Positions 5,074 to 32,175 of a stretch of 64,000 bases of DNA are shown in pieces. Every line of letters begins with the position of its first letter. Position 1 is the stretch's first letter. A program made the position numbers and the translations under genes. Where the stretch lies: assembly GCA_024231215.1 (NCBI GenBank), contig JAAEQR010000099.1, positions 50,401-114,400 of the forward strand. The letters are read 5' to 3'. This stretch comes from PVC group bacterium. GTDB lineage: Bacteria; Omnitrophota; Gorgyraeia; B26-G9. Under the pieces are notes generated by a model. It saw only the letters and a list, made by a program, of their open reading frames with translations. It did not search any database and had not been told where the DNA came from.

Positions 5074-5637
5074 TCATTCTGAGGGGAGCGTTCCGGGGAT
5101 AATAATGCTAAGTACGCCATCGATCACTAATTTTGCCTGATTTTTATCGCTGAAATTTACCACCATTCTATCGAGTTTTATCAGTTGTTTACTGTCCCTT
5201 ATTTGAAGTTGTAATTTCAATAGTTCTTCAAAGGTCAATTCCATCTGTACATCAGCCATATACTTCGCATACATATCTCTTGTCTCAGGATTTTCGTGTA
5301 CAGCCAGCTTGGTTATCGAACCGCCGGATAAGCGAATAATATTTTCTGTCTCATGCAGCAAAATAGTTTTTATATCTTTCTCCTCCGCCTTCCCCAGTTT
5401 CAAGAAAGGCTTACATTGTTCATAGTCCGCGTATAGCTGGTCTTTGACAGCATGAATCGCCAAATATTCCTGGAGCCGCACCTCTGCGATTTTTATTTGA
5501 TCCTTCAAGATTTTTGACTGCTGACGCAGGCTTACAATAAAAACCCTTTCAAAAACAAACATTGCCAGAAGTATCGCGCAAATTCCGATAATAATTTTTT
5601 TGTTTTTTAACATCTGTATGCTTTTATTCTTAGCCAT
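5074..5637 (-). CDS. pilO: PilO-like type IV pilus alignment protein: N-terminal TM, coiled coil, periplasmic domain
   Basis: Bitopic topology and size typical of PilO. It immediately follows the pilMN fusion with a 5-nt gap. Confidence 0.55.
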   Translation of the reverse strand: MAKNKSIQMLKNKKIIIGICAILLAMFVFERVFIVSLRQQSKILKDQIKIAEVRLQEYLAIHAVKDQLYADYEQCKPFLKLGKAEEKDIKTILLHETENIIRLSGGSITKLAVHENPETRDMYAKYMADVQMELTFEELLKLQLQIRDSKQLIKLDRMVVNFSDKNQAKLVIDGVLSIIIPGTLPSE

Positions 5638-5642
5638 TATTT

Positions 5643-7052
5643 TTAAAGCTCCGCCAGAAATTTCACTTCAAAATTCACCAATTCCAGTCCTTTTATTTTT
5701 CGCTTACGAGTGTTCCGAGTCTCTACCTCTTTAAACTGTTTTGATTCTTCTAGTTTTGTAGTTAGACCAAATATGTCAGACAGCTGCTGCGCTGTACCTT
5801 TTAAAACCACGTTATTATCTGCATCAATGCTTAAGTTCGTTATCACCACCGATTCGCTCACTGCTTTTTGAAGTTGGAACAATACAAATAGGGGGATTTG
5901 GCGTTCTGCCAACAATTCCTTTGTTGTTTTTATTTTTTTTCTCTGATGCACAACTTCACCCAGTTGCTTTTCAATCACCGAAGCCTGTTCGTTTAGTCTT
6001 GCTAAATATGCCCGATTTTGTTGTTGGCGCCCTAAAAAGATAAAAAAGATAACCCCTAAAATATAAATCGATCCCAAACCAATAGTCATCAACTCTTTCA
6101 TCCTCCGACGAAGATCCTTGCGAATCTGTATCTCCGGCAAGGTAAAACTAAACTGCCTCTGTATATTATCAAAAAACAATGCCGCTACCCCGCTCACTGA
6201 AGCATCTTTGGGAATTGTTCTCTTTTTTGCCCGAAGGCATTTGTCCATTCCTGGGATTTTTACGCTTTGCACTGGGAATTCCAATTCTTGCTCAATACTT
6301 GGCGCCAATATTTCAGCAAAGGCTCCGCTTAAAAAAACCTGTGACGGCTTTGCACTCTGTTCTTCACTATTGAAAATTATTAAGGCCTGCCGAATATCAC
6401 CCATCAATCGATTTCTTCCTGTTTTTTCTTCTAATTGAATATTTTTAAAAGAAATGCTTCGCGAAAAAACTAACCGACCGCCTTTTAAAATAATAAGATC
6501 TGTAAAAAAAGTATCTACATCTAAAATTAAATAGACCTCTTCTTTGCTTATCTTCATTTTTGAGGTTTTTAATATAAGGTGATACAGCCCTTCGGAGCTA
6601 AACATTATGCTGTCTACAGGAAAGCCTGTCTTTTCGATAATCCGCATCTGCTTACGCATGATTTCTTTAGTAACAATCGCCACTAATATTCGCGAATACC
6701 CTCTTTCATCTTGTCCACATATCTGATAGCTGTAAAACATTTCTTCTTTTTTATACGGAACAATCCGGTTAATATGCAGCTCTACCATCTTGATCAATTC
6801 TTTTTTATCTTTGGACGGCAAGGACAAGTTTCTCACGGTAACAAAGTTACGAGGTAAAGACAAAGCTACTGAGGTAGGTTTATATTTGTTTTTCTTAAAA
6901 ACATCTATGATCGTATCTGTAATAGCCGCGTCATCAAGCCCGGCAATCCGTTTTACAATACAATCTGTAAATTTTGGCTGCGCGCCCATTTGATCCGCGG
7001 TTATTATTTTTAAATATTGCTCTCCGATTTCAATTCCGGCAAATAATTTCAT
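5643..7052 (-). CDS. pilMN: PilM-PilN fusion: actin-like PilM ATPase-fold domain, then a TM helix and a PilN periplasmic domain
   Basis: N-terminal LFAGIEIGEQYLKIIT matches the PilM start. A TM helix MTIGLGSIYILGVIFFIFLG follows, then a PilN-like coiled coil and C-terminal domain. Confidence 0.75.
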   Translation of the reverse strand: MKLFAGIEIGEQYLKIITADQMGAQPKFTDCIVKRIAGLDDAAITDTIIDVFKKNKYKPTSVALSLPRNFVTVRNLSLPSKDKKELIKMVELHINRIVPYKKEEMFYSYQICGQDERGYSRILVAIVTKEIMRKQMRIIEKTGFPVDSIMFSSEGLYHLILKTSKMKISKEEVYLILDVDTFFTDLIILKGGRLVFSRSISFKNIQLEEKTGRNRLMGDIRQALIIFNSEEQSAKPSQVFLSGAFAEILAPSIEQELEFPVQSVKIPGMDKCLRAKKRTIPKDASVSGVAALFFDNIQRQFSFTLPEIQIRKDLRRRMKELMTIGLGSIYILGVIFFIFLGRQQQNRAYLARLNEQASVIEKQLGEVVHQRKKIKTTKELLAERQIPLFVLFQLQKAVSESVVITNLSIDADNNVVLKGTAQQLSDIFGLTTKLEESKQFKEVETRNTRKRKIKGLELVNFEVKFLAEL

Positions 7053-7077
7053 AGCATTTAAATATCTTCGGTTGTTA

Positions 7078-8463
7078 TTATGCTGGCAAACTACCGATCA
7101 TATAAAACTTTTCTTCACTAATATGATCCACTCTGCCGCTTAAAATTTTCTGGCATCCGGATAATGTATCCTCCAAAGAAACATAATGTCCCTTTTTCCC
7201 TGTATAGCTTTCCACAACAAAAAACGGCTGGGTCAAAAAATTCTGCAGTTTCCTTGCCCGGTCAAAAATAACCTGTTCTTCATGTGTAAGCTCAGACTTC
7301 CCGATAATCGATACAATTCTCTGCAACTCGTCATAGCGCTGAAAATAACGCAATACTTCCTGGCTTATGCTATAATGTGCAGCCCCGATAATGTCCGACG
7401 AAATAAACGCGGAGCTTGATTCCAGCGGATGAATTGCCGGATACAAACCATGTTGTACGTATTCCCGGGACAATACCATAATCGAATCTAAATGGCTGAA
7501 TATGGTTACTACCGCAGGATCTGTTAAATCATCTGCCGGGACATAAACCGCTTCCACGCTGGTAATACTACCGTCTTCTGTAGAAGCAATGCGTTCATGA
7601 AATTCGCCAATTTCACTGGTTAATGTCGGCTGATATCCTGTCTCCGACGGAATCCTTCCCAGCAAGGCAGACACCTCGCTTCCTGCCTGCGCGAAACGAA
7701 ACACATTATCCACAAAAAATAATACATCCTGGCCATCTTCCCTCAACGATTCGGCAATAGTAACCGACGTTCTGGCGCTCTCAAATCTCGCTCCCGGAGA
7801 TTCATTCATTTGCCCGAAGACAAGAATAGAATTCTTTAATAGATCACGTTCTAAAAATTCATAATACAATTCATTCCCTTCCCTGATCCGTTCGCCAATC
7901 CCGCTAAATACACAAGTACCTTTTTGTTTATGAATAATATTATGGATAAGCTCTAAAATAATTATTGATTTGCCGCAAGCCGCGCCACCCAGAATGCCTG
8001 TTTTAGATCCTTTAACAAAAGGAAATAACAAATCAATAACTTTAACGCCTGTTTCTAGAATTTCATGCGTTAGCTTTTCACCTTTTTTTGTTTTTACATC
8101 TCTACGCATTTTAGACCTGTGTGTTGATAAAAATTTGTCAGCTTTCACCGGCCCTTTTTTGTCTATGGGCTTACCCATAACATTCAATAATCTACCATAT
8201 AAATATTTCGCTTCAGGAACCGTTAAACCCTTTCGAGTCCTTTCCACTGAAGTATTGCGACGCAGTCCATATGTAAAAGACAGCGCAATACATCGGCAGA
8301 TATTGTCCAGCTTATGTTCTATAACCTCTAAAACCACTTCTTCGTCACGATAATTTTTTGCCATAACGATTTCATGAATTCCCGCGATTGCTTTTTTGCT
8401 CGGGAATTGGACATCTACAACCGGTCCATATACAGCAACGATTTTACCAATATCTTCCCTCAT
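7078..8463 (-). CDS. atpD: F-type ATPase beta subunit, divergent P-loop
   Basis: Strong beta-subunit identity blocks: [30 protein letters not shown] and [13 protein letters not shown]. Walker A is GGAACGKS instead of GGAGVGKT. The DELSEED region reads SELTHEE. There is an N-terminal insertion. Confidence 0.85.
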
Positions 8464-9318
8464 TTATTTCTTCACCTTAATCCGCGCAGCAAATAATTCG
8501 CGAATTCGTTTATCTGCCAACGCATGTACACTTTTAAAATATTCTCTAGCTAACTTTCTATTAATTCGAGTTAGCTCCTGATAGCTTGCTTCTAAATGCA
8601 TAAGCCTGGCAGCCAATTCTGCCAGTTTACTAGAATATAGTATCTGACCCAAGCTAGATTCTAAATACAAACCTATCAATCCTTCGATAATACTTTGATC
8701 AGACGGCTCTGTAATTATTGCTTCCTTTGTTTTCTTCCTAACTTTCCCCTCTAATTCCGACATGGGAAAAGGCAGCAGCTGCCGCGTTTTTATTTCGCGC
8801 GCAGTAACTGAAATAAATTCAGCATACACAATAATCGCTTTATTAATTTTCCCGTCTAAATAATCACGAATTAAAAACTTTTTTAGTTTTCGCGCTTCAC
8901 TCAAAAAAGTCTTTTCTTTGACCCCCGGCAAGAACCTAAAAGACTCTTTTTTACCGCGAAAATAATGAGACCCCTTATCTCCTAAAACAATATAAGAATC
9001 TTCCGGGGTTTTTTTCTGACGTAAAGCAGCACTGATCAAAAGCATATTTAAGTCCCCTAAAAACCCTTCGTCAGAGGTAATTACCACAATGGTCTGAGGA
9101 GTCTCCTGTTCCCGCAACAGCAAAGGATGTATAGTGATCTTTTCCTGGCCCAGTTTAGAAAGAACTGAATATATTTCCCGGGGAAATCTTTCTTCTCCCC
9201 ACTGCTGCCGCTGAAACTGCCGCAACTGGATAGATGTCGCAATCTTCAGAATATTAATTATCTGATCTAAGCTTTCATTAAAGCTTAAACTATATTTAAG
9301 TTGGGAAAGTGACTTCAT
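8464..9318 (-). CDS. atpG: F-type ATPase gamma subunit
   Basis: 284 aa with N- and C-terminal helices. Sits between the alpha and beta genes as in atpAGD operons. Confidence 0.7.
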   Translation of the reverse strand: MKSLSQLKYSLSFNESLDQIINILKIATSIQLRQFQRQQWGEERFPREIYSVLSKLGQEKITIHPLLLREQETPQTIVVITSDEGFLGDLNMLLISAALRQKKTPEDSYIVLGDKGSHYFRGKKESFRFLPGVKEKTFLSEARKLKKFLIRDYLDGKINKAIIVYAEFISVTAREIKTRQLLPFPMSELEGKVRKKTKEAIITEPSDQSIIEGLIGLYLESSLGQILYSSKLAELAARLMHLEASYQELTRINRKLAREYFKSVHALADKRIRELFAARIKVKK

Positions 9319-9339
9319 GTAAAATCAATCCCTGTTTCT

Positions 9340-10815
9340 CTAGGTTTTTGCTTTTTTCTTCTTAAAATACTCTATAAGTGCTACATCTAATTGTGTTTTT
9401 ACTATATCGGTCAAGGTTTTTTCATTTTCAATTGCAGTTACTAGATCCGGGTATTTCTTGCACAGAAATGGAAGTATCTCCTGTTTAAACTTGTTCCAAA
9501 GTTCAGGAGGAAGAACCTCCAAAATCTTCTTTTTAAACGCGTAAAAAAGAGCTACTTCCGCAGTTAACGCCAATGGATTATAATTCTCCTGAACAAACAA
9601 TTCTTCTAATACCTTGCCCCGGCGAATAATAGCCTGCGCTTCTTTAGAAAGTCCGGTACGCAAACGCATTAAACGCAGCATTTCCCGGTATTGTAGATAG
9701 TCCAAACGGATTCCTTCGCTTAATTCCCGCAACGCCGGACATTGGACTTTAGAGCCAAGACGTGATACAGAAAGGCCAATATCAATTGCCGGCTTAAACC
9801 CTTCCCGGAATAAATTATTATTTAAAAATATCTGTCCGTCGGTGATTGATACCAGGTTAGAGGGAATAAACCCGGTAATATCTCCCTGCAAAGTTTCTAC
9901 GATAGGCAAAAAACTCATAGTTCCACCGCCTAATTCCGCTTTTAATTTTGCGGCTCTTTCCAGTAACTGGGAATGAATAAAAAAGATATCTCCGGGATAT
10001 GCTTCTCTCCCGGGAGAACGTTCAAGCAATAAAGATATCTGCCGATATGCCCAGGCATGTTTGGTTAAATCATCAAAGACAACAACAACATCCCGGCCCT
10101 GATGCATAAAATATTCACCAATTGCCGCGGCAGTATAAGGAGCAATATACTGCTCTGCCGGAGAACTTGAGGCAGAAGAACAAACCCCAACAACGGTAGG
10201 CATTATATCGGTTTGCACTAGCTGATGAATAATCTTTTCAAATGTGGATTGAGACCCTCCGATAAAACAATAAATGCAAACCACATCTTTATCTCGTTGA
10301 TTAATCATCGTATCCATGGCAATACTCGTGCGTCCTGTCTGCCTGTCTCCGACGATTAATTCTCTTTGCCCTTTACCAATTGGAATAGTTAAATCAATAA
10401 TTTTTATTCCGGTTGATAATTGTTCAGATATGGGATCGCGCTCCATAATTCCCGGAGCTTGCCGAAAAACCGGATAACGATCTACCTCGGGAATAGAACC
10501 TTTATCGTCTACCGGCTGAGCCAGACAATCAACTACTCTACCCAAGAGTTTATTTGACACCGGAACCGCAAGTAATTCACTCGCGCTTTTTAAATAATCA
10601 CCGATTTTGATATCCGGCTCATCAGATAAAACAATAATAAATACTTCATTCGGATCAAACCCGATAACCACGCCCTTGGTCCCATCATTAAATTCTACCA
10701 GCTGCCCATAAAGACACGACGGCAATCCGTCTGCCTTAACAATCCCCTGGGTTATTTCTTTAATGCGGCCAACTTCCCTGATTTCTACCTGCGGTATTTG
10801 TATTTGCTTTTGCAT
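9340..10815 (-). CDS. atpA: F-type ATPase alpha subunit with Lys-to-Arg change in the P-loop
   Basis: GDRQTGRTSIAMDTMINQ versus the canonical GDRQTGKTA.A.D.I.NQ. Remaining alpha-subunit blocks are conserved. Confidence 0.85.
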   Translation of the reverse strand: MQKQIQIPQVEIREVGRIKEITQGIVKADGLPSCLYGQLVEFNDGTKGVVIGFDPNEVFIIVLSDEPDIKIGDYLKSASELLAVPVSNKLLGRVVDCLAQPVDDKGSIPEVDRYPVFRQAPGIMERDPISEQLSTGIKIIDLTIPIGKGQRELIVGDRQTGRTSIAMDTMINQRDKDVVCIYCFIGGSQSTFEKIIHQLVQTDIMPTVVGVCSSASSSPAEQYIAPYTAAAIGEYFMHQGRDVVVVFDDLTKHAWAYRQISLLLERSPGREAYPGDIFFIHSQLLERAAKLKAELGGGTMSFLPIVETLQGDITGFIPSNLVSITDGQIFLNNNLFREGFKPAIDIGLSVSRLGSKVQCPALRELSEGIRLDYLQYREMLRLMRLRTGLSKEAQAIIRRGKVLEELFVQENYNPLALTAEVALFYAFKKKILEVLPPELWNKFKQEILPFLCKKYPDLVTAIENEKTLTDIVKTQLDVALIEYFKKKKAKT

Positions 10816-11569: not shown

Positions 11570-11779
11570 TTATTTAAACAAGTTATACACCACAAGTAAC
11601 GCAAGTACTGCGATCGCTTCCGCGAATACAAACGCTGTGATCATAATTACAAAAATCTTAGGCGCCGCGCCTGGATTACGTCCTACTGCACGCACTGCAT
11701 TACGCCCAACCATTCCAATCACAAGTGCCGGGCCCATTGTACTTAAAAGCATAATTAAAGTTACGGTAAAATTCTGCAT
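11570..11779 (-). CDS. atpE: F-type ATPase c subunit (proteolipid)
   Basis: 69 aa two-helix hairpin. Polar loop GRNPGA. Conserved ion-binding Glu in helix 2 (FAEAIAVLAL). Confidence 0.8.
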   Translation of the reverse strand: MQNFTVTLIMLLSTMGPALVIGMVGRNAVRAVGRNPGAAPKIFVIMITAFVFAEAIAVLALLVVYNLFK

Positions 11780-11833: not shown

Positions 11834-12061
11834 TCATCGTTCCACTAAAATCGTAAGCCGGTTATTTTCCATGCTCGCAACACCATCTGTCACGGAAAAA
11901 GAATCAGAGTCATTTATGGTAATAATGCCATTTTTTAGACGAGACAGGAAATTCTCATGCATGTCCAGTACGCAGAGCTCGCCCTCAACTGTGGGCAATA
12001 CTACCCTTACGGCCGATTTTTCATAAAGAATTTCTTTTGTATCTAAAATAGAAACATCCAT
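11834..12061 (-). CDS. atpC: F-type ATPase epsilon subunit, beta-sandwich domain only (75 aa)
   Basis: N-terminal beta-sandwich similarity (LPTVEGELCVLDMHENFLSRLKNGIITI). The usual C-terminal helical inhibitory hairpin is absent. The gene sits first in the operon rather than last. Confidence 0.6.
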   Translation of the reverse strand: MDVSILDTKEILYEKSAVRVVLPTVEGELCVLDMHENFLSRLKNGIITINDSDSFSVTDGVASMENNRLTILVER

Positions 12062-25100: not shown

Positions 25101-26421
25101 GAGTATAATTTCTCCCAGAAAAAAACTGTAATTCTTCGCCTTCACTCGGTCCGCCTAAATCGGGATCATACATAATAAATTTGCATTCTGCTGTTGGGGC
25201 CGGAAGATTCGGTAATTTTTCCCAGACCGGGCTCCCTGTCAAAGGTCCGTAGCGATAAAAACCTCTATCCGTGCGATAAGTACCTAGCCTTGTCCGAACA
25301 TCATACATCCCTGCGGCATAAATATAATCGCCAGAACCCGGATACCAGATATCAGACCCACGCCAAAATTCAGTATCATAACCATAGAGATCAGGAAGAT
25401 CCGCAATCCCGGTATCCCAGGAATTAGTACTAATCTGATATCTCCAAAATGTCTCATAATGCCTTCCCGGCGTACAATAAATATAATCCGCTCCTGTTTT
25501 ATACGCTAAAGCTCCGCCTTGCTCTACGTTATCCGGGGTGGAAGCTCTGTCTCTCCAAACTCCTCCGCCAATATCCGGATTGTATTCGAAAAAATTACGA
25601 TCATCGCCGCCGCCTAAAGCAAACAATCTTCCCGGGGTAGTCGCATGTGTTAATTCATTGCCTGTATGCGCAAGGTCCGATCCAAGATTAATTCCTTTGG
25701 TTAAAGACAGAAACTGGCGCCATTCGCCCGGAGGTGGTGATTCCATCGGAAATGCGGTATTGCCCGGATCGGGATCCGCAACATCCGAAGGCAAATAAAA
25801 ATATGTTTCTTTTGACCCGGATCCACGCAACGCGTATATATATTGGCCATCATTGGTGATTGTTGCTCCCGCGGCTACAGCTACAGACATTGGCGCTAAA
25901 AATTCCCATACTTGATTTGTAATATGAAAACGGCCGAATTGTTTCCCATCGCCAGAAGCAAACAAACAATATATATAATTACCCATTCGAGTGTAAGTAG
26001 AAAATGTGCCTGGATCAGGAATAGACGGTAAGTTCAGCCATTCGCCCAAGCCGGAAGCAAAAGAATCGGTCACGCTGGAGGTTAACTCTACCTGGGCAGC
26101 ATTGCCTGTCCCATTTATAACTATATCTTTCAATGTCCCATCAGAGAAATCCGTGTCTGTAGTGTCCGTAATCATAAACGTATTCGCAGATAAAGATAGA
26201 GCTCCGCCTGAAGTCAGAATATTGCTGTCCCGGGAAGTATATTCAGCCCAGCTGCTCTGGTCTCCGGGGTGGCTTGCGTCATTAGCACTTGAGCCTCCGG
26301 ACCAATCGGTTTGATTAAACGTACCGGCTTCCTGAACATACCCTGTCTGTGCGAGCATAAAAACAATAAGCAGAGATGTAAGAAACGCCGCAATTATCTT
26401 GTAATATTCACGCGCTTTCAT
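13123..26421 (-). CDS. Giant secreted multidomain protein (4432 aa)
   Basis: Single uninterrupted 13.3-kb ORF with a signal peptide. Kelch-type beta-propeller blades run from aa 140 to 1310. A DUF2341-like, LamG/ConA-like and ILEI-like lectin region runs from aa 1515 to 2450. About 13 tandem Ig-fold repeats of 95 aa each run from aa 2645 to 3915. An acidic coiled coil follows, then a distinct C-terminal domain. Confidence 0.9.
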   Translation of the reverse strand: MKAREYYKIIAAFLTSLLIVFMLAQTGYVQEAGTFNQTDWSGGSSANDASHPGDQSSWAEYTSRDSNILTSGGALSLSANTFMITDTTDTDFSDGTLKDIVINGTGNAAQVELTSSVTDSFASGLGEWLNLPSIPDPGTFSTYTRMGNYIYCLFASGDGKQFGRFHITNQVWEFLAPMSVAVAAGATITNDGQYIYALRGSGSKETYFYLPSDVADPDPGNTAFPMESPPPGEWRQFLSLTKGINLGSDLAHTGNELTHATTPGRLFALGGGDDRNFFEYNPDIGGGVWRDRASTPDNVEQGGALAYKTGADYIYCTPGRHYETFWRYQISTNSWDTGIADLPDLYGYDTEFWRGSDIWYPGSGDYIYAAGMYDVRTRLGTYRTDRGFYRYGPLTGSPVWEKLPNLPAPTAECKFIMYDPDLGGPSEGEELQFFSGRNYTRPWRYDIVNGKWSTLVQAPTDRGYGINICYPGIGDYIYYVPAEDSSTFFRYSISNNEWEQLAHAPSGIRHGGNRLGYLNGYVYCLRGAESDDFWRYDVSQTPGSDAWETLTDFPQNVDYGSGVIGINVGGTDYMYALRGTDTYDFYRYDVAGETWESMDSTTDSMDGSFMVYSNYTESDGYTYIYACRGQWSRNFYKYGPIEDDISDQDDLDSDGNNLGVWTKVTDAPNNFRFHMDAGPSIAHTSAANNYVYGLSADWDSIGYSYGFVRYNMDTDAWDILEPTPFHQARSCITGTDTAIFAIANYGYNNFWKYDPATGQWNEPVIDRHDNQMGMTVADANNNIYVIHGDESSCPSHFWVYNADQNRWTDLIRVPFVLAPGAKASYLTATNSIYITKGRGSTEMYRYDITTKTWIECAESSLRFWRGAEVAADNDNDRIFMMGGWGSTNFVVYNSSDYWSSFADAPRAHDDWLNGLVYAQGKVYLMPGDDESTFHEYDPSVDTWLSRTQVGDETGMGETVETTGSGGVLFYPGSGDYIYSIPRATSEYLYRYSITQDLWEQLAKLPITTSSYEASIVTVGKPWFYIFNYQWGSYFMRYHVTENTYDLPSFLPEDMNEDCSFAGYKGYIYYLNRDAFHRYSTIANTWSTLADPPLTFDQTDTTIRVVEYQGQPSIYVTGGNSLASFYRYDVAADLWIELSPPPDPFEVGNSICHYGDYLYILRGESNTFWQYDLADDSWSVLNDTPQYVGYGGQVVYPGSDDYLYVMTGNRSSNLYRYHIGSGSWSVRTPAPVPLHTGHSEAIYPGFGNYLYLIHGSSWWDWSGSYVFLRYDVENNLWEELTPASFNIRHPGTLIWADGEYFYATQGRGRKFAKYYAFCFGNYTSKIKEIGNHSGWGNISWDFNDIQCATVSFRAGNETDLSDTSEWFNIADVANGADLSTSAACPDTAKYLQYKITFSTDNLLESPAIEEMRIEWEKYPISQMLISSVYDTTFATSRLLDLTWQETLPLGTDARLQLRTSADNISWTEWLGIADAQVLGNDYSMQADYAYSSKIEVSAGTAKIQLELADFKHAQAVIIDNTGGVEKTDELVSLKIFPSNTHFWDNVRSEGSDIRFYDGSIKLSYYLSTFDYASKSISIDVKIPLLSADSIQTIYVLYGSVSAISESDSTIANRWSYPNYTGWTDNVGSSDPETYTSGGHGMMGKYGGEGQYTMYTKSNAPAGSYEVTFDYYWMDSWDGERGYLYANGGLVWNTYQFTAAQNIGNITTRSGSDYLGRAYKVTFDHPGGDLTLRFTSNLSSGGDYDESFGVDNIVLGGGAFACFSVAQELASSPALSGWQYRLPITITNSGLTDLTDEIINIKIDNWHEFWKNVKIDGEDVRVVDSDDSTVLESFLKTFDYANTEAEVCAKIPFIAAESSETIYLYYGNSAAEYPSKGGVEFEDGDLFAGLPDFSYANKIVLDNTGGEAGTDVLVKVEIPFSNLQFWANVQTDGDDIRFHDGTQTLEYCLELFNYAEKTAVIFVEIPTIAIDEIKTIHLLYGSASAASDSNDTIINVGDLNISSAGSDDGPRDHYVYVDGTLRHTTTISWAVTRLDADLNWVESMQYDCHNDSAQADAMEAYLAGLPDDTLIIVTTYDEPRNNIYNNTSLKNELKNFGASDALLSGLAYRSKYLMIGRKGLNAGEAYVEKYGPRYGSCIQYVSATERMPLTLNKYIKTYFSMEEEAGTCPGLAAWAYKIPITVTNFTTADITNQLVELKLDNWHEFWSNVKNDGGDIRIVDSDDTTVLNYYLDSFDFVSKKAMVYTKIPSFSALADKTIYLYYGNPGASGASDLSASAKGIIAVFVHNFHGTTIAGSTFMYGGGTVTQNEYVTLQNNSDDWDCYLNTNNFYARSNIEFCAKIKADSGSRTMIGWKSNAGGASYQDMPHAIYFDNGNFHIYEDGSYRQGVGSYSPGTWYEIRIVLKSMGADYYYRIVDSSTWTLLYESSYSSESNLKPHIVHHDSGEQAHTDEWAILENNTVGMAQDAEDTYVHPANTHSLTNYYDDNPVIQPIIGVFYEGNLVNFQDVVTEPAGTEVGYQVSADGYNWYWHNGSSWAKVDFGYANTNTAAEINANLTNFQSQFPDGDFYYRAYLHTDDGINTPELDEVTITLASPPSYYFDSAGAEAINTLNEDCLDDRYLQYKTTLYSYGESTPVIDSIDIDYIRAEINVSSPDGAEQWAVASSHTITWTSEGVDGAASNVQIEYSADTGSSWNEVIASTANDGSHGWTVPDSASPNALVRVSSVEFPNVSDESDAIFQIMGLIITSPNGGDIWEAGRQHTITWASTGTVNDNLTIEYSPDNGSTWIAASTQRPNTGNFNWTIANDPSDEVLLKIYDADNTDVVDESDAVWAIVPQPILIVGAPNGAEQWIVGNQYEVNWATNSTQFVNNVIIDYSTDNFSTETAIITTSIGTPSGSDANDTISGTYDWTVPEDISTTVKVRIREDSILGGRDTQSIIWDMSDADFSIVFPYITITSPVSGLTWVSADIHDITWTIFGTVTDDLLFEYTTDGLIFNTIADNEACDGIYAWTIPDAIDSNIVQVQITDNAWTQVTGISEAFTVIPYPIVTMLDPNGGEVLAIGEEYDITWESYGQKLESGGADYYEMAIYYSDDNGGSWNLISNQQTNDGLYTWTVADVETIEALIRVMDENDALVVDVSNDVFQITIPAVTITSPNGAETWYATGDYEITWTFLGAVTNDLLLEYSSNGGVAWNTIATGEPNDQTYTWDVADDLSDQVLVRLTDNARATVWDMSDAVFSIVAPTITVTSPNGAEEWIVGTTHGINWTSEGNTDEAIRDDLTIEYSSDGGGAWNTVSSAEANDGDYVWTIPNDLSTNCLVRIFDATRIATTDQSDSVFAIRLPYVNIIAPNGGESWAIGTAQEITWGSLGSVSDNLRIEYSKDNFGSDINLIANFETNDGTYDWIVVDDYSITAKIRVTDNDTPAISDMSDVPFAIAYPVIRVTVPNGGELWTVSDAEIITWDNTGSVGNDLLIEYSKDNFISDVNTIIGSTTNSGSHNWTIPNDVSASMRVRITDNTRPVVWDRSDGMFTVLPIPQLTILTPNGSEIWRVGTIQDVTWEDNGGLISNNLTVQYSSDGGTVYQDITTGAANMGAYSWTIPDDVSAICLVKVFDADRPSNEDVSDDVFAIADPLITITAPNGGEVWAVADQAPATWTTEGSISDNLVAEYSPDGGSTYFVIGSGELNDGEYTWDVPDDVTNNALFKLTDGNRPVSTDVSDEFFRIIPIPTFDVTAPDGGEEFVLGDMTTITWTWEGLSISDNLVIDMSGDGFATRRIIAVGEANDGLYTWDIPDDALTGPTLKLRITDGNRSEITNQSAGFFRIRGGFTINVPNGDEDWVAKSDHTVMWQTRGTIAKIKLDYSTDNGLNWNLIAANVDNIGSYVWILPDAQTTEAMVRVSDPDDSTVFDVNDAVFNIVYASVVFNILDYDTLQHLQDVNVNEPGTGWNDSGLNSAITRSASYPYATYTTFLSKTNFIDNSVTWVVPKSGTDTYIVNIYLENSASAQVTWEAILTYSFSPGSDTLSAVGSLQRKGKLVGTNALERADMGPAVLSIYTPDGTTVRNNVSANAPNENGMYTLTLPGTGFEAGYVYPATLTVLYRGRDYTSSANIDVGSEILQYEFFTQTATQLAASVAQIEESVGEGTESMITELEDTRDSLEGTLEEATDNLTETMEETTTALTEELSATRESLEGSLAAAEDELQTTMKSKILNREKQAKSGDEINVRYQTYSGMSPKIDVYDVKNVQRIIKGSMVEMGTTGIYEYPVKFYSAWGIGDYTIICSEETRGTLDSLTITVVRNTVDDIAGQTSAILGATSGLSDIGGIVDILNNQVGLIETSFTRIAKDFLNEAKQGSGMSKELNIIYKQLSDMGSQIKEFGKLESVGIENRLEVAAEKKKDIKYLKNKTQEMKAMLELNNQMIENISDKPMSQVWYEF

Positions 26422-26505: not shown

Positions 26506-27429
26506 TTATTCTTCGATTTTTGCTTCTAGTTCTTTTATCCTCTTTTTTTCTATTTCCATGCGTTTTTGCATAGCTCTATATGAAACCATGTCTGCCGCAT
26601 ATCTCTCTTGTAGATTTTGTTTTAGAACTTTTGTTTCTGTCTTTATTTTCTGCTCAAACTTCATTCTTTCTGTTTCTTGCGTAATCACCAGTTTTTTCTG
26701 TAAATGCATATTCACAGAATATAAAGCACCCACGAGCAAAAGCATCACCCCAACAGCCACGCCACTCATAACACGCTTCTTGTGCTGCTCTTCAGGTTCT
26801 TCTTCGGGATTATCTTCTTTTGCAGCTTCTATTGCTGCATCTATTTTCTTTTTAAACTCTTTGGATCCAATAACTCTTTTGCGGCCCAAAGCATTACTTA
26901 AACTGGCAATTTCATCCTTGCCCATTATTTCGACAAAATCAGCATAACTGCGTCCGTCTAAACTCTCGAGTCCTTCTGTTTTTTCCTCAGCAATGTTGAC
27001 CGTATCCGCTAAAAGCTCATTTTTTACATATAAGGCATAGCTGCTAAATGGGTTTTCCTGGGAATGCATGCAGGCAATCACTTTTCCTAGCCAAGGCATT
27101 TTTTCAATTAATACACAGCGATACCGTTCGGTAAATAAATGTCCGGTACGATCATATTTTTTATTAAAATATTTAATGTAAGAAGAGTTCAGGTCATGCA
27201 TGATTTGCGAAATAGTTACACCTTCAACCAGTTCTATTAATAAATTAAGCTGGGATGAGTCTAAAACATAAGCAAATAATTTAAATCCATGTTGTTCTTT
27301 GTATTTTTTCAAAAGATCCACATAAGCTTGAAAATCTTCATTGTCTTTAAAAATATTCCGATTATTGTCTCCTCGAGAGGTAGTATGATATAAGGCTCCT
27401 TCAATATTGATTCTCGGCATCCTTGGCAT
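26506..27429 (-). CDS. Inactivated IS200-like Y1-transposase-fold domain fused to a TM helix and a C-terminal coiled coil
   Basis: The N-terminal 150 aa align to IS200/RAYT TnpA. The strand-1 YH motif is kept (ALYHTTSRG) and so is the catalytic-Tyr region (FTERYRCV). The HuH histidines are replaced (SQLNLLIEL where HIHMLLEI is expected). A TM helix (GVAVGVMLLLVGALYSV) and a K/E-rich coiled coil follow. Start assigned at the internal Met preceded by an AAAGGAG RBS. Confidence 0.65.
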   Translation of the reverse strand: MPRMPRINIEGALYHTTSRGDNNRNIFKDNEDFQAYVDLLKKYKEQHGFKLFAYVLDSSQLNLLIELVEGVTISQIMHDLNSSYIKYFNKKYDRTGHLFTERYRCVLIEKMPWLGKVIACMHSQENPFSSYALYVKNELLADTVNIAEEKTEGLESLDGRSYADFVEIMGKDEIASLSNALGRKRVIGSKEFKKKIDAAIEAAKEDNPEEEPEEQHKKRVMSGVAVGVMLLLVGALYSVNMHLQKKLVITQETERMKFEQKIKTETKVLKQNLQERYAADMVSYRAMQKRMEIEKKRIKELEAKIEE

Positions 27430-27525
27430 TATGCAGCTCCTTTCGCTGGTAATTTCATCAGTCAATAGCTAATAGTCTATGGTTTTGATTTTTCTTTGTA
27501 ATGCTATTAACCCTAGACTTCTTCC

Positions 27526-27552: not shown

Positions 27553-27584
27553 AAAAAAAAATCTCAGACAAACTCGCCTGAGAT
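27553..27584 (-). terminator. Strong intrinsic terminator: 7-bp stem followed by a 9-nt U-run on the minus strand
   Basis: Minus-strand transcript ATCTCAG-gcgagtttgt-CTGAGAT followed by UUUUUUUUU (plus-strand A9 at 27553-27561). Lies between the 95-aa gene and the Y1-like gene. Confidence 0.7.
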
Positions 27585-27711
27585 CACTTGCTGCAACCTG
27601 CCAATCCCGACTCTCGTCTCAGGACGCACGGCTTTGCGTCCCCAGCTTCCGCTGAGTTTGCCCACATTAACTATATATTATAAGTATACCTTACTATATA
27701 AATGCGCGCAA

Positions 27712-27770: not shown

Positions 27771-28058
27771 TTATTTAGCCGCCGTTTTTTCAAGTTTTCT
27801 GCGACGTAATGCACTTTGTGCAACCTCTTGAGCTAAAGCTTCATACTCAGCTATCTGCTGCTCATATTCTTTGTACATTTCATCAATAGCTAAAGTTTCC
27901 TGCTTTGCCATTTCAATATCGTATTTAGCCTCTTCTCCCTGGGCAATATTTTGTGTCCATAATCCGGCAAAAACAATCATTACGCACAAAACAAAAATAC
28001 TGGCACCGAGAAACCCCATGACTATCTTTAAAATTGTATTTGATATACTTGCTTTCAC
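27771..28058 (-). CDS. Small bitopic membrane protein with coiled coil
   Basis: N-terminal TM helix and a Q/E/A-rich coiled coil. Overlaps the upstream gene by 4 nt. Confidence 0.5.
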   Translation of the reverse strand: MKASISNTILKIVMGFLGASIFVLCVMIVFAGLWTQNIAQGEEAKYDIEMAKQETLAIDEMYKEYEQQIAEYEALAQEVAQSALRRRKLEKTAAK

Positions 28059-28711
28059 TCTTCGCTCAACTCCTGAATCCAGGCTATAACCTCTTTTACA
28101 TCTTCTCCGGCTGGATTTGCTTCTAAATAAAGCTTGTACTGTAAAACCGCTTTGTGAGGTTCTTTGGTAATCATGTGATAAATAAGTCCTAAGTTATATA
28201 ATGCTTCATGATTTTGCGGATTAATTTCTAAGGCTTCATCATACGCTTTAATAGCTTCCTCATACATTTTTGCTTTTGTGTATGCTACGCCTAAATTATA
28301 ATAAAAACGTGTTCGTTCGGATTTTAGTTCCTGCTCTAAATTTGTTACTGTTTGTTCTAGCGCGGCAGTTGAAGATTTTTCTTGTTTCCATTTATTAATC
28401 AAAGCTTCGCTTGCATTTAATTTCTTTTCCGAAACTTCTAACTTGCTCATCAATTGCTTTTTCCCATCCTGAAAAGCATTTATCCGGCTTAAATGACCCA
28501 CAACATCTGCGCTTAATTTTTCGTTTTTATCTTCTAATCTTGTTTTCTCCTGCTTTAGTATCTCTATTTCAGCCCGCATATGCGCGGAAAACTCCTCGCT
28601 TTTAACAAATCGTTCTTCCCAGACCTGTTGCCGCAAAAAGAAAAAAACAGTTGCCAGCGCAATTGCAATTATTATAACGATACCTATTAAATAAATAGTT
28701 TTGTTTTTCAT
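28055..28711 (-). CDS. Bitopic membrane protein: TM helix, coiled coil, C-terminal TPR repeats
   Basis: TM at the N-terminus, then a long coiled coil. TPR motifs YYNLGVAYTKAKMYEEAIKAYDEALEINP and ALYNLGLIYH. Paralogous to the 366-aa neighbour. Confidence 0.6.
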   Translation of the reverse strand: MKNKTIYLIGIVIIIAIALATVFFFLRQQVWEERFVKSEEFSAHMRAEIEILKQEKTRLEDKNEKLSADVVGHLSRINAFQDGKKQLMSKLEVSEKKLNASEALINKWKQEKSSTAALEQTVTNLEQELKSERTRFYYNLGVAYTKAKMYEEAIKAYDEALEINPQNHEALYNLGLIYHMITKEPHKAVLQYKLYLEANPAGEDVKEVIAWIQELSEE

Positions 28712-29808
28712 CGCAGCATTCTGAGATAGGAGTTAACCCTTCCCTTATTTGATGAGTTTGGATTAAGTCGTAAGTATGTTTCAAACGCATTAACCGCTTT
28801 GGCATTGTTTTTTATATGCGCATAAAGCAGCCCTAGCTGATAATAGTATGCGGCTATTTGTGAGTTGCGGGCAATTGCCTGCTCATAAGCTGTTATCGCA
28901 TCTCTATATCTGCGCTGTTTGGTATACATTAGGCCCAGCCTAGCTTTCTCAATTGATGGATCGCCACTTTCCACTTTTTCAGAAAAAGAGGGAAGCTGTT
29001 TTACCTTGCGAAAAGTTGAAGATGCCTTGCGCCGGCCAAATAATTCAGCCGCGCGATCATCCCATAATTTCAATTGTTCTTCTGTAAAATTATATCGTTT
29101 TTCCAACAAGCTATAAGAATCGTTCAAGAGGTGTTTTTCTTCTTTTAAAAATACGACCTCGTTTTCGAGATTTGCTATTGCCTCTTCGTGTTCGATGCTC
29201 ATTGAATTTTTTTCTTTTTCATGCCGTTGTTTAAGTTGTTCTATTGTTTGTTTTAAATCCGCTATTTCCTGCCGTAGATCCGCAAACATCTTTTCGCGTT
29301 CTGCAATCACTATCCACTGACTATCGGTAAGTTTATTTAAACGAGTATTATCTTCCCCCAAAAACTCTGCGGCTTGGGATACTTGCTGATATTTCTCTCT
29401 TAAGCCTATCAGCTCTTCTTTTAAGATGATATTTTTTTTAGATAAAGCAGCTCTGTCTTTTTGTAATTTTGTAATTTTATCGGCAGTTTCTAAATCGGCA
29501 AGCTCTAAAACCTCTTGTTCTTTTTCCTGCAAACGTGAAGTTTTTTGCCGAAGTAATTCCACTTCGGCAACAAGTCGGGCAATAAAAGATTTATGGGGAG
29601 AAGATTCGCTTTGCTGGGCATCGGATATTAATATTTCGCGTAAAACCGTATTGTCTTCTGTAAGTGTAGCTATTTCTTGCTTAAGATATTGAATGAACTG
29701 TTGGGTATCTTCATTTTCTGCTGCATACAAAAACATATTGCATTTCAAAATCAAGATTATGAATAGACTTATTATGAATAAGAACTTCCGTGTCCTTACC
29801 AAAACCAA
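28708..29808 (-). CDS. Bitopic membrane protein: TM helix, long coiled coil, C-terminal TPR repeats
   Basis: Same architecture as the 28055-28711 gene. TPR motifs AITAYEQAIARNSQIAAYYYQLGLLYAH and AVNAFETYLRLNP. Confidence 0.6.
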   Translation of the reverse strand: MVLVRTRKFLFIISLFIILILKCNMFLYAAENEDTQQFIQYLKQEIATLTEDNTVLREILISDAQQSESSPHKSFIARLVAEVELLRQKTSRLQEKEQEVLELADLETADKITKLQKDRAALSKKNIILKEELIGLREKYQQVSQAAEFLGEDNTRLNKLTDSQWIVIAEREKMFADLRQEIADLKQTIEQLKQRHEKEKNSMSIEHEEAIANLENEVVFLKEEKHLLNDSYSLLEKRYNFTEEQLKLWDDRAAELFGRRKASSTFRKVKQLPSFSEKVESGDPSIEKARLGLMYTKQRRYRDAITAYEQAIARNSQIAAYYYQLGLLYAHIKNNAKAVNAFETYLRLNPNSSNKGRVNSYLRMLR

Positions 29809-29830: not shown

Positions 29831-31609
29831 CTACTTAATTCCTTTTAATTTTTCATCAAACAAAACTACCGAATCCGCATCACTTGTCGTTTGGGCCTCA
29901 GGATACGGTAATTGAGATTGTTCTAATTCCTGCAAAAACTGATCATTGCCGCCAGACATTCCTGTTTCAGGCAATGAATTCATGTTTTCTAATTCTTGCA
30001 GAAAAATATCTTCTGTTTCAGATTGTGACATATATGTGTCAATAACCATTTTTCTATCTCCCGGCTCTTTGGTAATAGAGTGTTCTCCGGTGATAATATG
30101 CGGGGTGATAAATACGATCAGCTCTGTCTGGCTGCTTCCTTGCGTTTTTGAGCCAAACAATCCGCCGATAAACGGAATCCTATGAAGCCAAGGAATCCCT
30201 GCTTCATCCTCCCTCTTCTCATCTTCTCTGAGGCCGGCAATCATAATCATTGTTTTATCTTTTACTTTTATGAAAGTCTCTACCTCTGATGTAGCCACAA
30301 TTGGAATCCGGCTGCCTAAAGACGTTGTGATCGTTTCAGAAACGTTGCTTACTTCAGGCTTAATCTCCATCGTCACAAATCCGTCGTTGCTGATCTTCGG
30401 AACAACCTTCAACTTTACTCCAACATCAATAAATTCAATCCCTTCAGAAGTTACCGTAGTAGATTCAGCCTGACTTAGCGTCTGGGTTACATATACGTCC
30501 CGCGTCCCAACCATGATCCTTGCTTCTTGATTATTTAAAACCGCAAGTCTGGGGCTTGATAAAATTTTAAGATCTCCATATTCCTGTAAAAATTCAAGCG
30601 CTATATTATAATCTCCCGGCTGCAGGGTTCCGATAGAGATGTTCCCAGAAGTTGCAAGCGCCGGCGTCACCGGGAAAGCAGCCGTCACTTCTGATTGCGC
30701 GCTGTTAAAAAAACTTTGCCAGTCAATCCCGCGATTAAAACGATCACTCATATTAATCTGGATAATTTCCGCTTCAATAAATACTTCTTTTTCCGCAACG
30801 TCTAAATTAGCTATAATTGTTCTGATTTTTTTCATTTTCTCCGAAGAATCTTCGACAATCAATCTCGAGCTTTTTACATCCACAATGATTTGACCCACAT
30901 CCGGGGTAACAACTTTCTCTAAACTCTTTTTTATTGCAATAGGATCCGCGGAATTCAATTCAAACACTACTGTCTCTGTCGGACAGTCAAGTTTCTTTAC
31001 CATATCTGCCATCAATTCCAACCGCTCCGGGATATCAAGTAAAATAACCATGCCGGAGGCTTTATCTATAATTACCTTCCCAACATCTGATTTCAACTGA
31101 CTTACTATGGTAAAAACATTGGTTGGATCTGCATAACGCAATTTGATATTTTTGTATTTTTTAGTTTCCAGATAATCATGCCCATACAATCTTTTGTATT
31201 CGGCCGCGGTCATAATATATATTATTCCTCCCCGCCGCTTGCAAGCTAAGTTCTGCGTCGCTAATATAACATCTAATGCTTCCAGAAAACTCACATTGTT
31301 TAAGAAAATATCTATTCTGCCGTTTAATCCCTTGCTCGGCACAATTGTTAATCCTGTCTTTTGGGCCAGCATGCGCAGTAAATTAATAATATGCATGCCT
31401 TTTAAATCCAGCGATATCGTTGTGTTTTCCCCTTGTTTTTTAGAGGTTGTTTCTATCTTTCCTTTGCCTTGTTGTTCCTTAGGGCTATCTGAAACGGCTA
31501 GTTCATCGGGATTTTCGAATATAGCCTCTTCCGAAGATTGCGCTATTACTAAAGACGTTCCAACCGCAATCATCAAAAATATTATACAAATGTGTCGTAT
31601 AGTGCGCAT
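29831..31609 (-). CDS. pilQ: Secretin (PilQ/GspD family) outer-membrane channel
   Basis: Signal peptide, N-terminal secretin-N domains, and a canonical secretin C-domain (VVPKISNDGFVTMEIKPEVSNV ... IPWLHRIPFIGGLFGSKT ... TELIVFITPHII). Start taken at MRTIRH to avoid overlap with the upstream gene. Confidence 0.85.
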   Translation of the reverse strand: MRTIRHICIIFLMIAVGTSLVIAQSSEEAIFENPDELAVSDSPKEQQGKGKIETTSKKQGENTTISLDLKGMHIINLLRMLAQKTGLTIVPSKGLNGRIDIFLNNVSFLEALDVILATQNLACKRRGGIIYIMTAAEYKRLYGHDYLETKKYKNIKLRYADPTNVFTIVSQLKSDVGKVIIDKASGMVILLDIPERLELMADMVKKLDCPTETVVFELNSADPIAIKKSLEKVVTPDVGQIIVDVKSSRLIVEDSSEKMKKIRTIIANLDVAEKEVFIEAEIIQINMSDRFNRGIDWQSFFNSAQSEVTAAFPVTPALATSGNISIGTLQPGDYNIALEFLQEYGDLKILSSPRLAVLNNQEARIMVGTRDVYVTQTLSQAESTTVTSEGIEFIDVGVKLKVVPKISNDGFVTMEIKPEVSNVSETITTSLGSRIPIVATSEVETFIKVKDKTMIMIAGLREDEKREDEAGIPWLHRIPFIGGLFGSKTQGSSQTELIVFITPHIITGEHSITKEPGDRKMVIDTYMSQSETEDIFLQELENMNSLPETGMSGGNDQFLQELEQSQLPYPEAQTTSDADSVVLFDEKLKGIK

Positions 31610-31611
31610 CA

Positions 31612-32175
31612 CTATATCTCCCATTCCTTATTTTCTTTTTGCAAAACTACACTGTCTTCTTTTATTGTTTTTACAGTAAATGTTTCAAACATTTGCCCTT
31701 GCTGCAATAAATGCGTTTCCCTTGTTATTGTATCCTCCAAAATAACTTGAGGCACATCTGTTTCCCACCAGACCCCGACAAACGATAACTGCTTCATCCG
31801 AGCTTCTGCTTCTTTTACCCAATTTGCTTTTTTTTCGCTAATAATTTTAGCCTGTTTCCCTGGGATTAATCCAAAAATGTTGTAGCGGATTCCGCTTTCC
31901 AAATTTTTTTTTATTACCAACAAGAAAGAAGCATCTATTGTTTGTCCCTTCTCCGTTGCTATATTCTTAGTGATTGCTACAAACCTTTTTTCTTTTTTCA
32001 GTTTTTGATAAAAAAGATCAAAGACAAAATAAGCCGTTATTATTACCCCGCAAACAATAATAGTTTTTATAACTTTCTGCAGGCTAATTGCCTTCAATTG
32101 TTTTTTTATCGCTTCCTGCAATTCCTGAACAATTCCCGGCTTGGGATTCCCGGCCACAACCCCTTTTGATTCCAT
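31612..32175 (-). CDS. PilP-like bitopic protein (short cytoplasmic N-terminus, TM helix, periplasmic beta domain)
   Basis: Topology and size match the PilP/GspC HR-domain class. Lies immediately upstream of the secretin gene and is co-oriented with it. Confidence 0.4.
   Translation of the reverse strand: MESKGVVAGNPKPGIVQELQEAIKKQLKAISLQKVIKTIIVCGVIITAYFVFDLFYQKLKKEKRFVAITKNIATEKGQTIDASFLLVIKKNLESGIRYNIFGLIPGKQAKIISEKKANWVKEAEARMKQLSFVGVWWETDVPQVILEDTITRETHLLQQGQMFETFTVKTIKEDSVVLQKENKEWEI

Follow-up and report, generated by a model that had tools for sequence, protein, structure and literature searches.

A probable reduced copy of an Omnitrophota supercluster that joins F-type ATPase genes, type II secretion-like genes and a giant surface protein

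The window analysed here is a 64-kb stretch of a 187,731-bp contig (JAAEQR010000099.1) from an Omnitrophota metagenome-assembled genome (MAG) labelled "PVC group bacterium". On its minus strand a secretin module, the gene of a giant surface protein, the genes of an F-type ATPase and genes for PilM-, PilN- and PilO-like proteins follow one another, while genes for PilB, PilC, PilT and a major pilin were found by tblastn to be absent from the 64 kb. The question raised by this arrangement is what would drive such an apparatus. A sequence-only reading of the same DNA had proposed that the F1-like complex acts as motor in place of a PilB homologue, and had offered as a simpler alternative that a housekeeping atp operon landed in a pilus locus. 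Comparison with related loci favours a different answer, namely that the locus is probably a reduced copy of an Omnitrophota supercluster, the remaining parts of which would cooperate with motor and pilin genes at other sites in the genome.

Genes were called from an open reading frame (ORF) map combined with Pfam (cut-off 0.01), NCBIfam and hydrophobic-segment prediction, and the ORF map and domain scans bore out the gene list and coordinates of the sequence-only reading, all on the minus strand. The cluster falls into three co-oriented units, unit 1 (32175-27771), unit 2 (27465-12291) and unit 3 (12061-5074). The tight spacing claimed for the whole cluster was found for most neighbouring genes, which overlap or lie 0–25 nt apart, but four wider gaps (305, 84, 229 and 54 nt) occur. 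The remaining ORFs in the cluster are full length and free of frameshifts, and composition and GC skew are uniform over the region. The ATPase beta subunit is identical to MCP4649657 and the secretin to MCP4649669 (GY853_06265); the close homologues all come from Omnitrophota, the best matches of beta being 62–81% identical.

Conservation of the supercluster in related loci

Related loci were anchored on the fused PilMN protein described below, with 24 loci obtained from species-representative genomes and 26 from metagenomes. The metagenome loci were found with a PilMN alignment, a single PilMN query having found no relative. The genes surrounding the nearest homologues of beta and of the secretin were added and near-identical copies were merged, resulting in 45 distinct loci including the window. 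Two loci taken as candidate PilMN paralogues in one bin (L019 and L020) were rejected as such, being strain variants of 91–96% identity.

Synteny was counted over the loci which reach far enough to show the feature in question. GspF is encoded directly upstream of PilMN in 34/36 loci, and GspE upstream of GspF, between beta and PilMN, in 26/27. The beta gene lies upstream of the secretion genes or GspE in every one of 22 loci, with alpha and c farther upstream in 19 of 20, the sole exception abutting a run of N. On the other side, pseudopilin genes follow the PilO-like gene in 30 of 32 loci, and genes for an HHH_3 (GspK-like) and a GspG-like protein are found downstream in 22/23 and 19/23, respectively. 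In CP070797.1 (L002/L005), which is labelled complete, an N run at the atp alpha gene mimics a truncated alpha fused to a PAS protein; the truncation was considered as a sign of a dispensable ATPase and was rejected, as it abuts the run of N (~8250-8350).

The closest relative with long flanks is GCA_043826565.1 (beta 81% identical), in which the entire supercluster is collinear. Its order begins with AAA_22, a 217-aa protein, the secretin, a 659-aa TPR protein, a further TPR protein, a 96-aa protein and a Y1-like protein. It continues with a 4085-aa Kelch/DUF2341 protein, a 272-aa protein, a GGDEF response regulator and the ATPase genes (epsilon-c-b/delta-alpha-gamma-beta), and ends with GspE, GspF, PilMN, a PilO-like protein, two minor pseudopilins, a GspK-like protein and GspG. 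GspE is also encoded next to beta on the 4.7-kb ENA contig of a relative with 81% beta identity, and in L032 and L003 (beta 76 and 72% identical, respectively), where gspF is present too. The supercluster arrangement spans lineages in which PilMN is only 33–53% identical.

Since beta holds its place in 22/22 loci across lineages with PilMN of such divergence, the position of the atp genes is, by this comparison, ancient and not a recent local insertion, and the suggestion of a housekeeping operon that landed in a pilus locus is not upheld. The claim that secretin module, giant gene, ATPase and PilMN/PilO form a conserved co-oriented unit is supported by the same order in GCA_043826565.1. The sequence-only reading would have seen a local rearrangement if relatives had pilB/pilC-type genes nearby and the atp operon elsewhere; relatives do carry such genes close by, but their atp operon sits in the cluster as well. 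As GspE (26/27) and GspF (34/36) are near-universal in the orthologous clusters, with pseudopilins in 30/32, the ATPase is not the family's substitute motor, which contradicts the proposal of an F1-like complex in place of PilB. Every one of the nearest relatives (beta 81, 81, 76 and 72%) has gspE beside beta, so the missing PilB/PilC-type motor is, to judge from gene content, a loss or relocation private to this genome.

A second, shorter arrangement was observed in L049 (Ga0164318_10006879, 1-11023), which reads b/delta-alpha-gamma-beta-GspE-PilMN-PilO followed by TPM, LemA and EamA.

The window locus lacks gspE, gspF, the pseudopilins, the GGDEF response regulator or peptidase and the AAA gene seen in relatives. 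Tblastn over the 64 kb found no orthologue of the relatives' GspE, GspF, pseudopilins, GspK-like protein or GspG, nor of their GGDEF response regulator, Peptidase_MA-like or AAA proteins. The statement that no major pilin, prepilin peptidase or secretion ATPase lies nearby is correct for the cluster, where neither pseudopilins nor a prepilin peptidase were found, but the window does contain one weak pilin-like candidate. This is a 128-aa ORF (57417..57803, plus strand) with a prepilin-type N-terminus (MKSFTLVELLMV...), identified by tblastn with the N-terminus of the L001 GspG (8.8e-6). Its N_methyl match (0.0049) is below the cut-off and it lies next to ndk, ~25 kb from the cluster; judged by that N-terminus, this genome still has genes of the pilin type.

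Another contig labelled 'PVC group bacterium' (55,670 bp) carries a GspE adjacent to a beta 70% identical to that of the window (the pair MCP4651357/MCP4651358). The accession numbers are only about 1,700 away from those of the window proteins, and the contig may come from the same bin, in which case a complete second cluster would exist.

The relatives also indicate what kind of machine has been reduced. Their GspG-like protein passes the NCBIfam cut-off (138.8 against 88.85), and the HHH_3 protein is GspK-like. Their secretion ATPase scores 581 bits as GspE and 568 bits as PilB, both below the respective cut-offs, and has an MshE-type N-terminal motif (57.3, cut-off 38) of the kind that binds cyclic di-GMP (c-di-GMP). 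On the basis of GspG, the GspK-like protein, the GspL-like PilMN, the GspM-like protein and the MshL, MshM and MshE traits, the ancestral machine is read as similar to a type II secretion system (T2SS), with traits of the mannose-sensitive haemagglutinin (MSHA) pilus.

Genes and signals of the three units

All window features in this section are on the minus strand. The last two genes of unit 3 are those on which the comparison was anchored. A PilM-PilN fusion with GspL-like topology (5643..7052; PilM_2 5.9e-11, PilN 1.3e-8, weak T2SSL, NCBIfam pilM 4.2e-18) starts 25 nt after the beta stop, and a 187-aa PilO/GspM-like bitopic protein (5074..5637) is encoded 5 nt after it and is 47% identical to its L001 orthologue. 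The label PilO is supported by family-level T2SSM_b/PilO matches, with 11 of 17 scanned members matching T2SSM_b and 10 matching PilO, but the window protein has no domain match of its own. At columns invariant in all other orthologues, the window PilMN deviates at 1/30 and PilO at 0/4, counts that are no worse than in loci bearing E and F. This absence of decay makes it most likely that both proteins still work with E, F and pilin functions elsewhere in the genome. A hairpin follows pilO, as read from the sequence.

The same operon opens with the ATPase genes, in the order epsilon-c-b/delta-alpha-gamma-beta, behind a sigma-70-like promoter candidate for atp-pilMN-pilO (12094..12122; TTGAAT-17-TATAAT, 10/12 matches, a consensus match only). 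The epsilon subunit (11834..12061; 75 aa; ATP-synt_DE_N 3.7e-16) consists of the beta-sandwich N-domain only, and all 11 orthologues (75–94 aa) are likewise without the C-terminal helical regulatory domain. It is followed by a 69-aa c subunit (11570..11779; ATP-synt_C 7.8e-12), in which the ion-binding Glu (FAE) is invariant in 12 orthologues. Like this Glu, the GRNP loop is conserved in the orthologues, and helix 1 of the c subunit was observed to be without the usual GxGxGxG packing motif (MGPALVIGMVG; alignment read by eye). The stator is a b/delta fusion of 245 aa from ATG (10831..11568; OSCP 3.1e-13, ATP-synt_B weak, NCBIfam subunit B/delta 6.4e-16) with a normal N-terminal transmembrane (TM) helix, and the same fusion was found in relatives by ORFs and Pfam.

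The alpha (9340..10815) and beta (7078..8463) subunits were identified by Pfam and gamma (8464..9318) by its ATP-synt match (1.9e-35). Canonical F1 alpha subunits are the best PDB matches of alpha (~440–470 bits), and its P-loop, GDRQTGRT, has Arg for Lys in the window, L001 and L003 only, the other orthologues keeping Lys. In beta the catalytic motifs are intact: the P-loop (GGAxxGK[ST]), GERxREGN, the Walker B region and DNVFRF are conserved across orthologues. By phmmer against PDB, canonical F1 beta subunits score 445–483 bits, compared with 348 bits for the beta of the Mycoplasma mobile G1-ATPase. Judged by these sequences, the enzyme looks like a catalytically competent rotary F-type complex with a c-ring and a stator. 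No ATP-synt_A match to subunit a was obtained among the scanned ORFs of the window, and none was found in any related locus reaching upstream of epsilon. In several relatives a Peptidase_MA-like HEMxH protein and/or a GGDEF response regulator is encoded between the gene of the 271-aa protein described below and epsilon.

Unit 1 begins with a bitopic protein of 187 aa (31612..32175) that ends in a small beta domain, is GspC/GspB-like by weak profile matches and has no Pfam match at 0.01. T2SSC (0.0015) and T2SSB (0.0045) were weakly matched with four orthologues, and NCBIfam GspC at 6e-4; orthologues precede the secretins in L028, L030 and L031. A single-sequence AlphaFold2 (AF2) model was unusable (pLDDT 39.5), and profile searches with the PilO-like and PilP-like alignments against PDB sequences gave chance-level matches only. 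The similarity behind the earlier label "PilP-like" is thus weak and of GspC/GspB type. The secretin itself (29831..31624; 597 aa) belongs to the GspD/PilQ/MshL class (Pfam Secretin 6e-48, two Secretin_N, STN) and shares 57% identity with its syntenic counterpart in GCA_043826565.1. Its NCBIfam scores for PilQ (221.8 bits, cut-off 284) and GspD (221 bits, cut-off 351) are both below the cut-offs; it scores MshL-like, and MshL is a frequent name for its close homologues in their source records. In relatives an ExeA/MshM-like AAA gene stands ahead of the module.

Two N-terminally anchored coiled-coil and TPR proteins follow the secretin, one of 366 aa (28708..29808; TPR families 1e-10, hydrophobic N-terminus) orthologous to a 659-aa protein of L028, and one of 218 aa (28055..28711; TPR_1 1.2e-13) which is 36% identical to its 237-aa L028 orthologue. 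The operon ends with a 95-aa bitopic protein (27771..28058; hydrophobic segment at residues 5–23 of the ORF), the orthologue of which is also present in L028. Of the three bitopic coiled-coil/TPR proteins listed by the sequence-only reading, the first two are therefore as described, but the third is without TPR. A second secretin paralogue (MCP4649719, 59% identical) was observed on the same contig, outside the window and ~50 genes beyond the first; like the pilin-like ORF, it speaks for further secretion or pilus genes in this genome. Its orthologues occur in modules of AAA, ~205-aa, secretin and TPR genes (L030, L031), one of which adjoins DUF2341 proteins.

Unit 2 encodes three proteins. 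A 319-aa Y1 (HUH) transposase-like protein (26506..27465; Y1_Tnp 6.7e-9) has a C-terminal TM helix, its single hydrophobic helix (residues 230–248), and a coiled coil. The HUH position reads QLN in the window and an intact HLH in the syntenic orthologue (L028, 15162-16109), whose gene holds the same position in the L028 giant-protein operon. The second gene encodes the 4432-aa secreted Kelch/DUF2341 (LamG-like)/Ig-like protein (13123..26421; Pfam Kelch, four DUF2341, ILEI and Kre9_KNH), with an N-terminal signal-like helix and no further TM segment. Its orthologue in L001/L028 is 4085 aa in size and 71% identical over the C-terminal 1000 aa. From adjacency, this protein is the likely adhesin or cargo. 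The unit closes with the 271-aa protein (12291..13106), an ORF product with hydrophobic segments at the N- and C-terminus and no Pfam match, the gene of which is upstream of epsilon and the atp genes in 12 of the 19 loci that reach so far.

The leader of unit 2 was found to contain a c-di-GMP-I riboswitch aptamer (27589..27672), which scores 54.7 bits with the Rfam model RF01051 (gathering score 35). An intrinsic terminator hairpin, with an 11-bp stem followed by a T-run (27560..27585), is the dominant hairpin in the fold. The sequence-only reading had this terminator closing the secretin operon; the hairpin is real, but it begins 3 nt past the aptamer and therefore belongs to the leader of the giant-protein operon, where it is likely the expression platform of the riboswitch. 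The orthologous leader in L028 carries the same aptamer (14938-15021, plus strand, 60.3 bits) and the terminator, in which stem positions vary on both arms (alignment read by eye). The two leaders are 80% identical, compared with 53% for the Y1-like proteins. The P3 loop contains CCUGAGA, which by the fold and by reading of the sequence is complementary to the terminator's 5' arm and so suggests that the ligand-free state forms an antiterminator, the direction of switching being a prediction only.

In Vibrio and Clostridioides, c-di-GMP riboswitches lie ahead of genes for adhesins and pili. The present leader resembles the c-di-GMP-I (GEMM-I) class in having an aptamer above the gathering score and an intrinsic terminator, here ahead of an adhesin-type operon. 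In a full-text literature search, no paper was found in which 'c-di-GMP riboswitch' occurs together with Omnitrophota.

The 11-mer GTGCCACGCAC was observed in exactly two copies in the 64 kb (27528-27538 and 27714-27724, minus strand), flanking the promoter-riboswitch-terminator unit, and at the same two leader positions in L028 (14876-14886 and 15082-15092, plus strand). It may be a regulator-binding site. A sigma-54 site was considered by eye and rejected, since neither the spacing nor the GG element agrees with one.

Explanations of the locus and comparison with known systems

In its full form, which is seen in relatives, the phylum-wide supercluster comprises an ExeA/MshM-like AAA protein, the GspC/B-like protein, the secretin and the TPR proteins in unit 1. 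Unit 2 adds the riboswitch (seen in the window and its closest relative), the Y1-like protein, the Sec-exported Kelch/LamG surface protein and its 271-aa partner. Unit 3 runs from epsilon-c-b/delta-alpha-gamma-beta through gspE (with MshE-type N-terminus), gspF, pilMN, the gspM/pilO-like gene and the minor pseudopilins to the GspK-like gene and gspG. GspE on a platform of GspF, PilMN and PilO would drive a pseudopilus under the secretin, with the giant Kelch/LamG protein as cargo or displayed adhesin. Taken with the MshE-type motif and the GGDEF genes, the riboswitch suggests that the supercluster is under the control of c-di-GMP, which would coordinate production by way of the riboswitch itself, MshEN and the GGDEF proteins close by. 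The fixed operon position of the F-type ATPase argues for its co-expression with the secretion machine, perhaps as a membrane energiser or accessory, and not for replacement of GspE.

Several points weigh against a reduced copy served by genes located elsewhere. The view extends over 64 kb of the contig, and a location elsewhere for E, F and the pilins is what we infer; among the best 120 database matches, no GspE at least 64% identical to the orthologous one came from this contig. L049, an independent reduced locus, keeps E without GspF or pseudopilins, and real loss may occur or be tolerated. For the ATPase no subunit a was found in the window or in any locus reaching upstream of epsilon, its epsilon is without the regulatory C-terminal domain in all orthologues, and V/A-type ATPase genes are also found in many Omnitrophota, including subunits in most Gorgyraeia, according to passages of a recent study (10.64898/2026.06.07.730766). 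The missing subunit a, the N-domain-only epsilon and the V/A-type ATPases in the phylum would all fit a specialised, non-housekeeping enzyme.

The rival explanation of a dedicated motor, in essence the hypothesis of the sequence-only reading, has an F-type complex that lacks subunit a and is coupled mechanically or energetically to PilMN/PilO and to the secretin. It would drive surface motility or put the giant adhesin in place, in this genome without GspE. It comes close to the attachment or motility role suggested in passages of Seymour et al. (2023, PMC10066038), and co-opted F-type ATPases in Mycoplasma provide a precedent (PMC3369863), although the window alpha and beta are much nearer to canonical F1 than to the Mycoplasma motor. 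In 22/22 loci the atp genes stand immediately ahead of the secretion genes despite deep divergence, and in the window only the 25 nt mentioned above separate beta from pilMN; the ancestral and near-universal state nevertheless has both GspE (26/27) and GspF (34/36). That no subunit a was found and that epsilon has no inhibitory domain would suit a motor, whereas an ordinary ion-translocating F1Fo needs just what is present here, an invariant Glu in the c-ring, a b/delta stator and canonical residues for catalysis. PilMN and PilO are intact though E, F and the pilins are gone, and L049 keeps atp-PilMN-PilO without F and pilins, but the fully E/F-less arrangement was seen in one MAG only. A dedicated motor is accordingly regarded as unlikely. 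The stronger proposition, that gspE, gspF and the pseudopilins are gone genome-wide and that an ATPase without subunit a, now joined in one operon to PilMN-PilO, energises a secretin-linked apparatus deploying a c-di-GMP-controlled giant adhesin, is very doubtful; if true, it would describe a rotary-ATPase-driven envelope machine without a PilB/GspE hexamer.

It is also improbable that the locus is a decaying remnant, in which the secretin, PilMN and PilO are leftovers of no working machine and the atp and giant genes are independent. Separate blocks are missing (E-F, the pseudopilins, the GGDEF response regulator or peptidase, the AAA gene), yet the ORFs that remain are full length and free of frameshifts. 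The HUH motif of the Y1-like protein is lost in the window and kept in its orthologue, and the P-loop Lys of alpha is replaced by Arg in the window's sub-clade, but PilMN and PilO retain the residues that do not vary among E/F-bearing relatives, from which they do not stand out. Partial loss has happened elsewhere too, as seen in L049; in the window, the riboswitch leader is 80% conserved and the tight operon spacing has been kept. That the source is a MAG makes a mis-joined contig conceivable, from which the E, F and pilin genes would be missing through assembly or binning. Such an artefact is extremely unlikely in view of several independent absences at clean gene boundaries with intact flanking ORFs, uniform composition and GC skew, and the hairpin after pilO. 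A reduced copy still working with motor and pilin functions encoded elsewhere is therefore retained as the probable explanation.

Compared with a classical T2SS (Gsp/Pul/Eps), the locus shares the secretin, the GspL-like PilM-PilN, a GspM-like protein, a weakly GspC/B-like protein and a Sec-exported candidate substrate encoded alongside. It differs in having none of GspE, GspF and GspG-K, in the F-type ATPase operon joined to it upstream and in the TPR/coiled-coil proteins after the secretin. With the MSHA pilus of Vibrio it shares an MshL-like secretin and, in relatives, the ExeA/MshM-like AAA gene, TPR (MshN-like) genes and the MshE N-terminus. However, these matches are below equivalog cut-offs, the major subunit of relatives is GspG-like and not MshA, and the window has none of the ATPase (MshE-type) or pilin genes. 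Of a type IVa pilus, PilB, PilC, PilT and a major pilin are absent from the window, and the secretin is under the PilQ cut-off.

The association of an F-type ATPase with pilus or secretion genes in Omnitrophota is already published. According to the passages of Seymour et al. drawn on here (PMC10066038), non-respiratory F-type ATPase genes adjoin type-4a pilus clusters; the ATPase occurs in 56 of 111 Velamenicoccia species and in every Omnitrophota class, and 57 of 66 contigs have the two co-located within 10 kb. The present locus likewise has its F-type ATPase directly beside pilus/secretion genes (25 nt here, <10 kb there), and 44 other syntenic Omnitrophota loci are orthologous to it. It differs from the loci described in those passages in being without assembly ATPase, platform protein and pilins, and in a partner system which is T2SS-like by the GspG/GspK-like tests. 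As regards the 'symbiotic' alpha clade with Mycoplasma type 2/3 discussed there, the window alpha and beta are by phmmer score nearer to canonical F1 than to the M. mobile enzyme. The same passages do not mention a giant Kelch/LamG operon, a secretin module, a riboswitch or a missing subunit a.

Passages of two further studies (West-Roberts et al., 2023, 10.1101/2023.11.21.568195; 10.64898/2026.06.07.730766) describe T2SS- or type IV pilus (T4P)-like genes beside giant genes in Omnitrophota, a link which likewise is not new here. In the West-Roberts loci, as far as these passages go, gspD/E/F-type genes are conserved beside very large surface proteins read as adhesion or predation tools, as in the arrangement seen here. 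Those giants, however, exceed 20–30 kaa and have many TM helices and SecA-like domains, compared with 4.4 kaa and one signal-like helix in the window, and the locus includes rcpC and a Rotamase_2 gene. ATP synthase has no occurrences in the part of the first study (10.1101/2023.11.21.568195) used here, and the passages of these Omnitrophota papers contain no riboswitch, missing subunit a or E/F-less variant.

The Mycoplasma Type 2/3 clusters consist of seven genes, for alpha-, beta-, gamma- and epsilon-like proteins and three unrelated ones, with no Fo a, c, b or delta (Beven et al., 2012, PMC3369863). They share with the window an F1-related ATPase beside surface or attachment genes, in small-genome host-associated bacteria, but the window has c and a b/delta fusion, and its beta scores 483 bits as canonical and 348 as G1-ATPase. 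By gene content, the window ATPase is not a Mycoplasma type 2/3 cluster. With canonical F1Fo it shares alpha-beta-gamma-epsilon, the intact beta motifs, the c carboxylate and a b/delta stator, and it differs in having no subunit a with the operon and no C-terminal helical domain in epsilon. The N-ATPase has the gene order atpDCQRBEFAG. This is unlike the epsilon-c-b/delta-alpha-gamma-beta of the window, where alt_F1F0_F0_B reaches 29 bits against a cut-off of 224.7.

What is new is, first of all, the larger fixed array to which the ATPase-secretion link belongs, made up of the secretin module, the riboswitch-led adhesin operon, the ATPase and the T2SS-like genes. A c-di-GMP-I riboswitch ahead of the giant-protein operon is new as well, found in two genomes and with the supposed "terminator" as its likely platform, and would give the adhesin a concrete, testable regulatory input in a phylum where experimental genetics hardly exists. 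In the visible copies of the ATPase operon no subunit a was found, though the ion-binding residue of the c-ring is kept. Finally, the reduced variants (the window and L049) keep the ATPase joined to PilMN/PilO without GspE and/or GspF and pilins, and could serve as natural test cases for cooperation between the ATPase and the alignment complex.

Neighbouring genes

The origin region (47966-50145) contains dnaA, dnaN, gyrB and gyrA, and rnpA, yidC, mnmG, parA and parB are also present. The GC skew switches near 48–49 kb, which places the supercluster ~16 kb from the origin region and on the leading strand. The minus strand at 33329-35449 encodes a protein of 706 aa, secreted or in the membrane, with part of a GGDEF domain (1.1e-8). 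It lies just upstream of the secretin module, with a tRNA-Ser gene (32713-32800) and a RidA gene in between. Cellulosome-type modules were found beside the cluster (1665-4981, plus strand; 36410-37213, minus strand), where a GH-like dockerin protein adjoins a cohesin-domain PEP-CTERM protein, with an additional PEP-CTERM protein upstream. Between serS and gyrA, at 38681-41179 on the minus strand, an RtcB RNA ligase, a 201-aa protein with no assigned function and an archease are encoded in a row.

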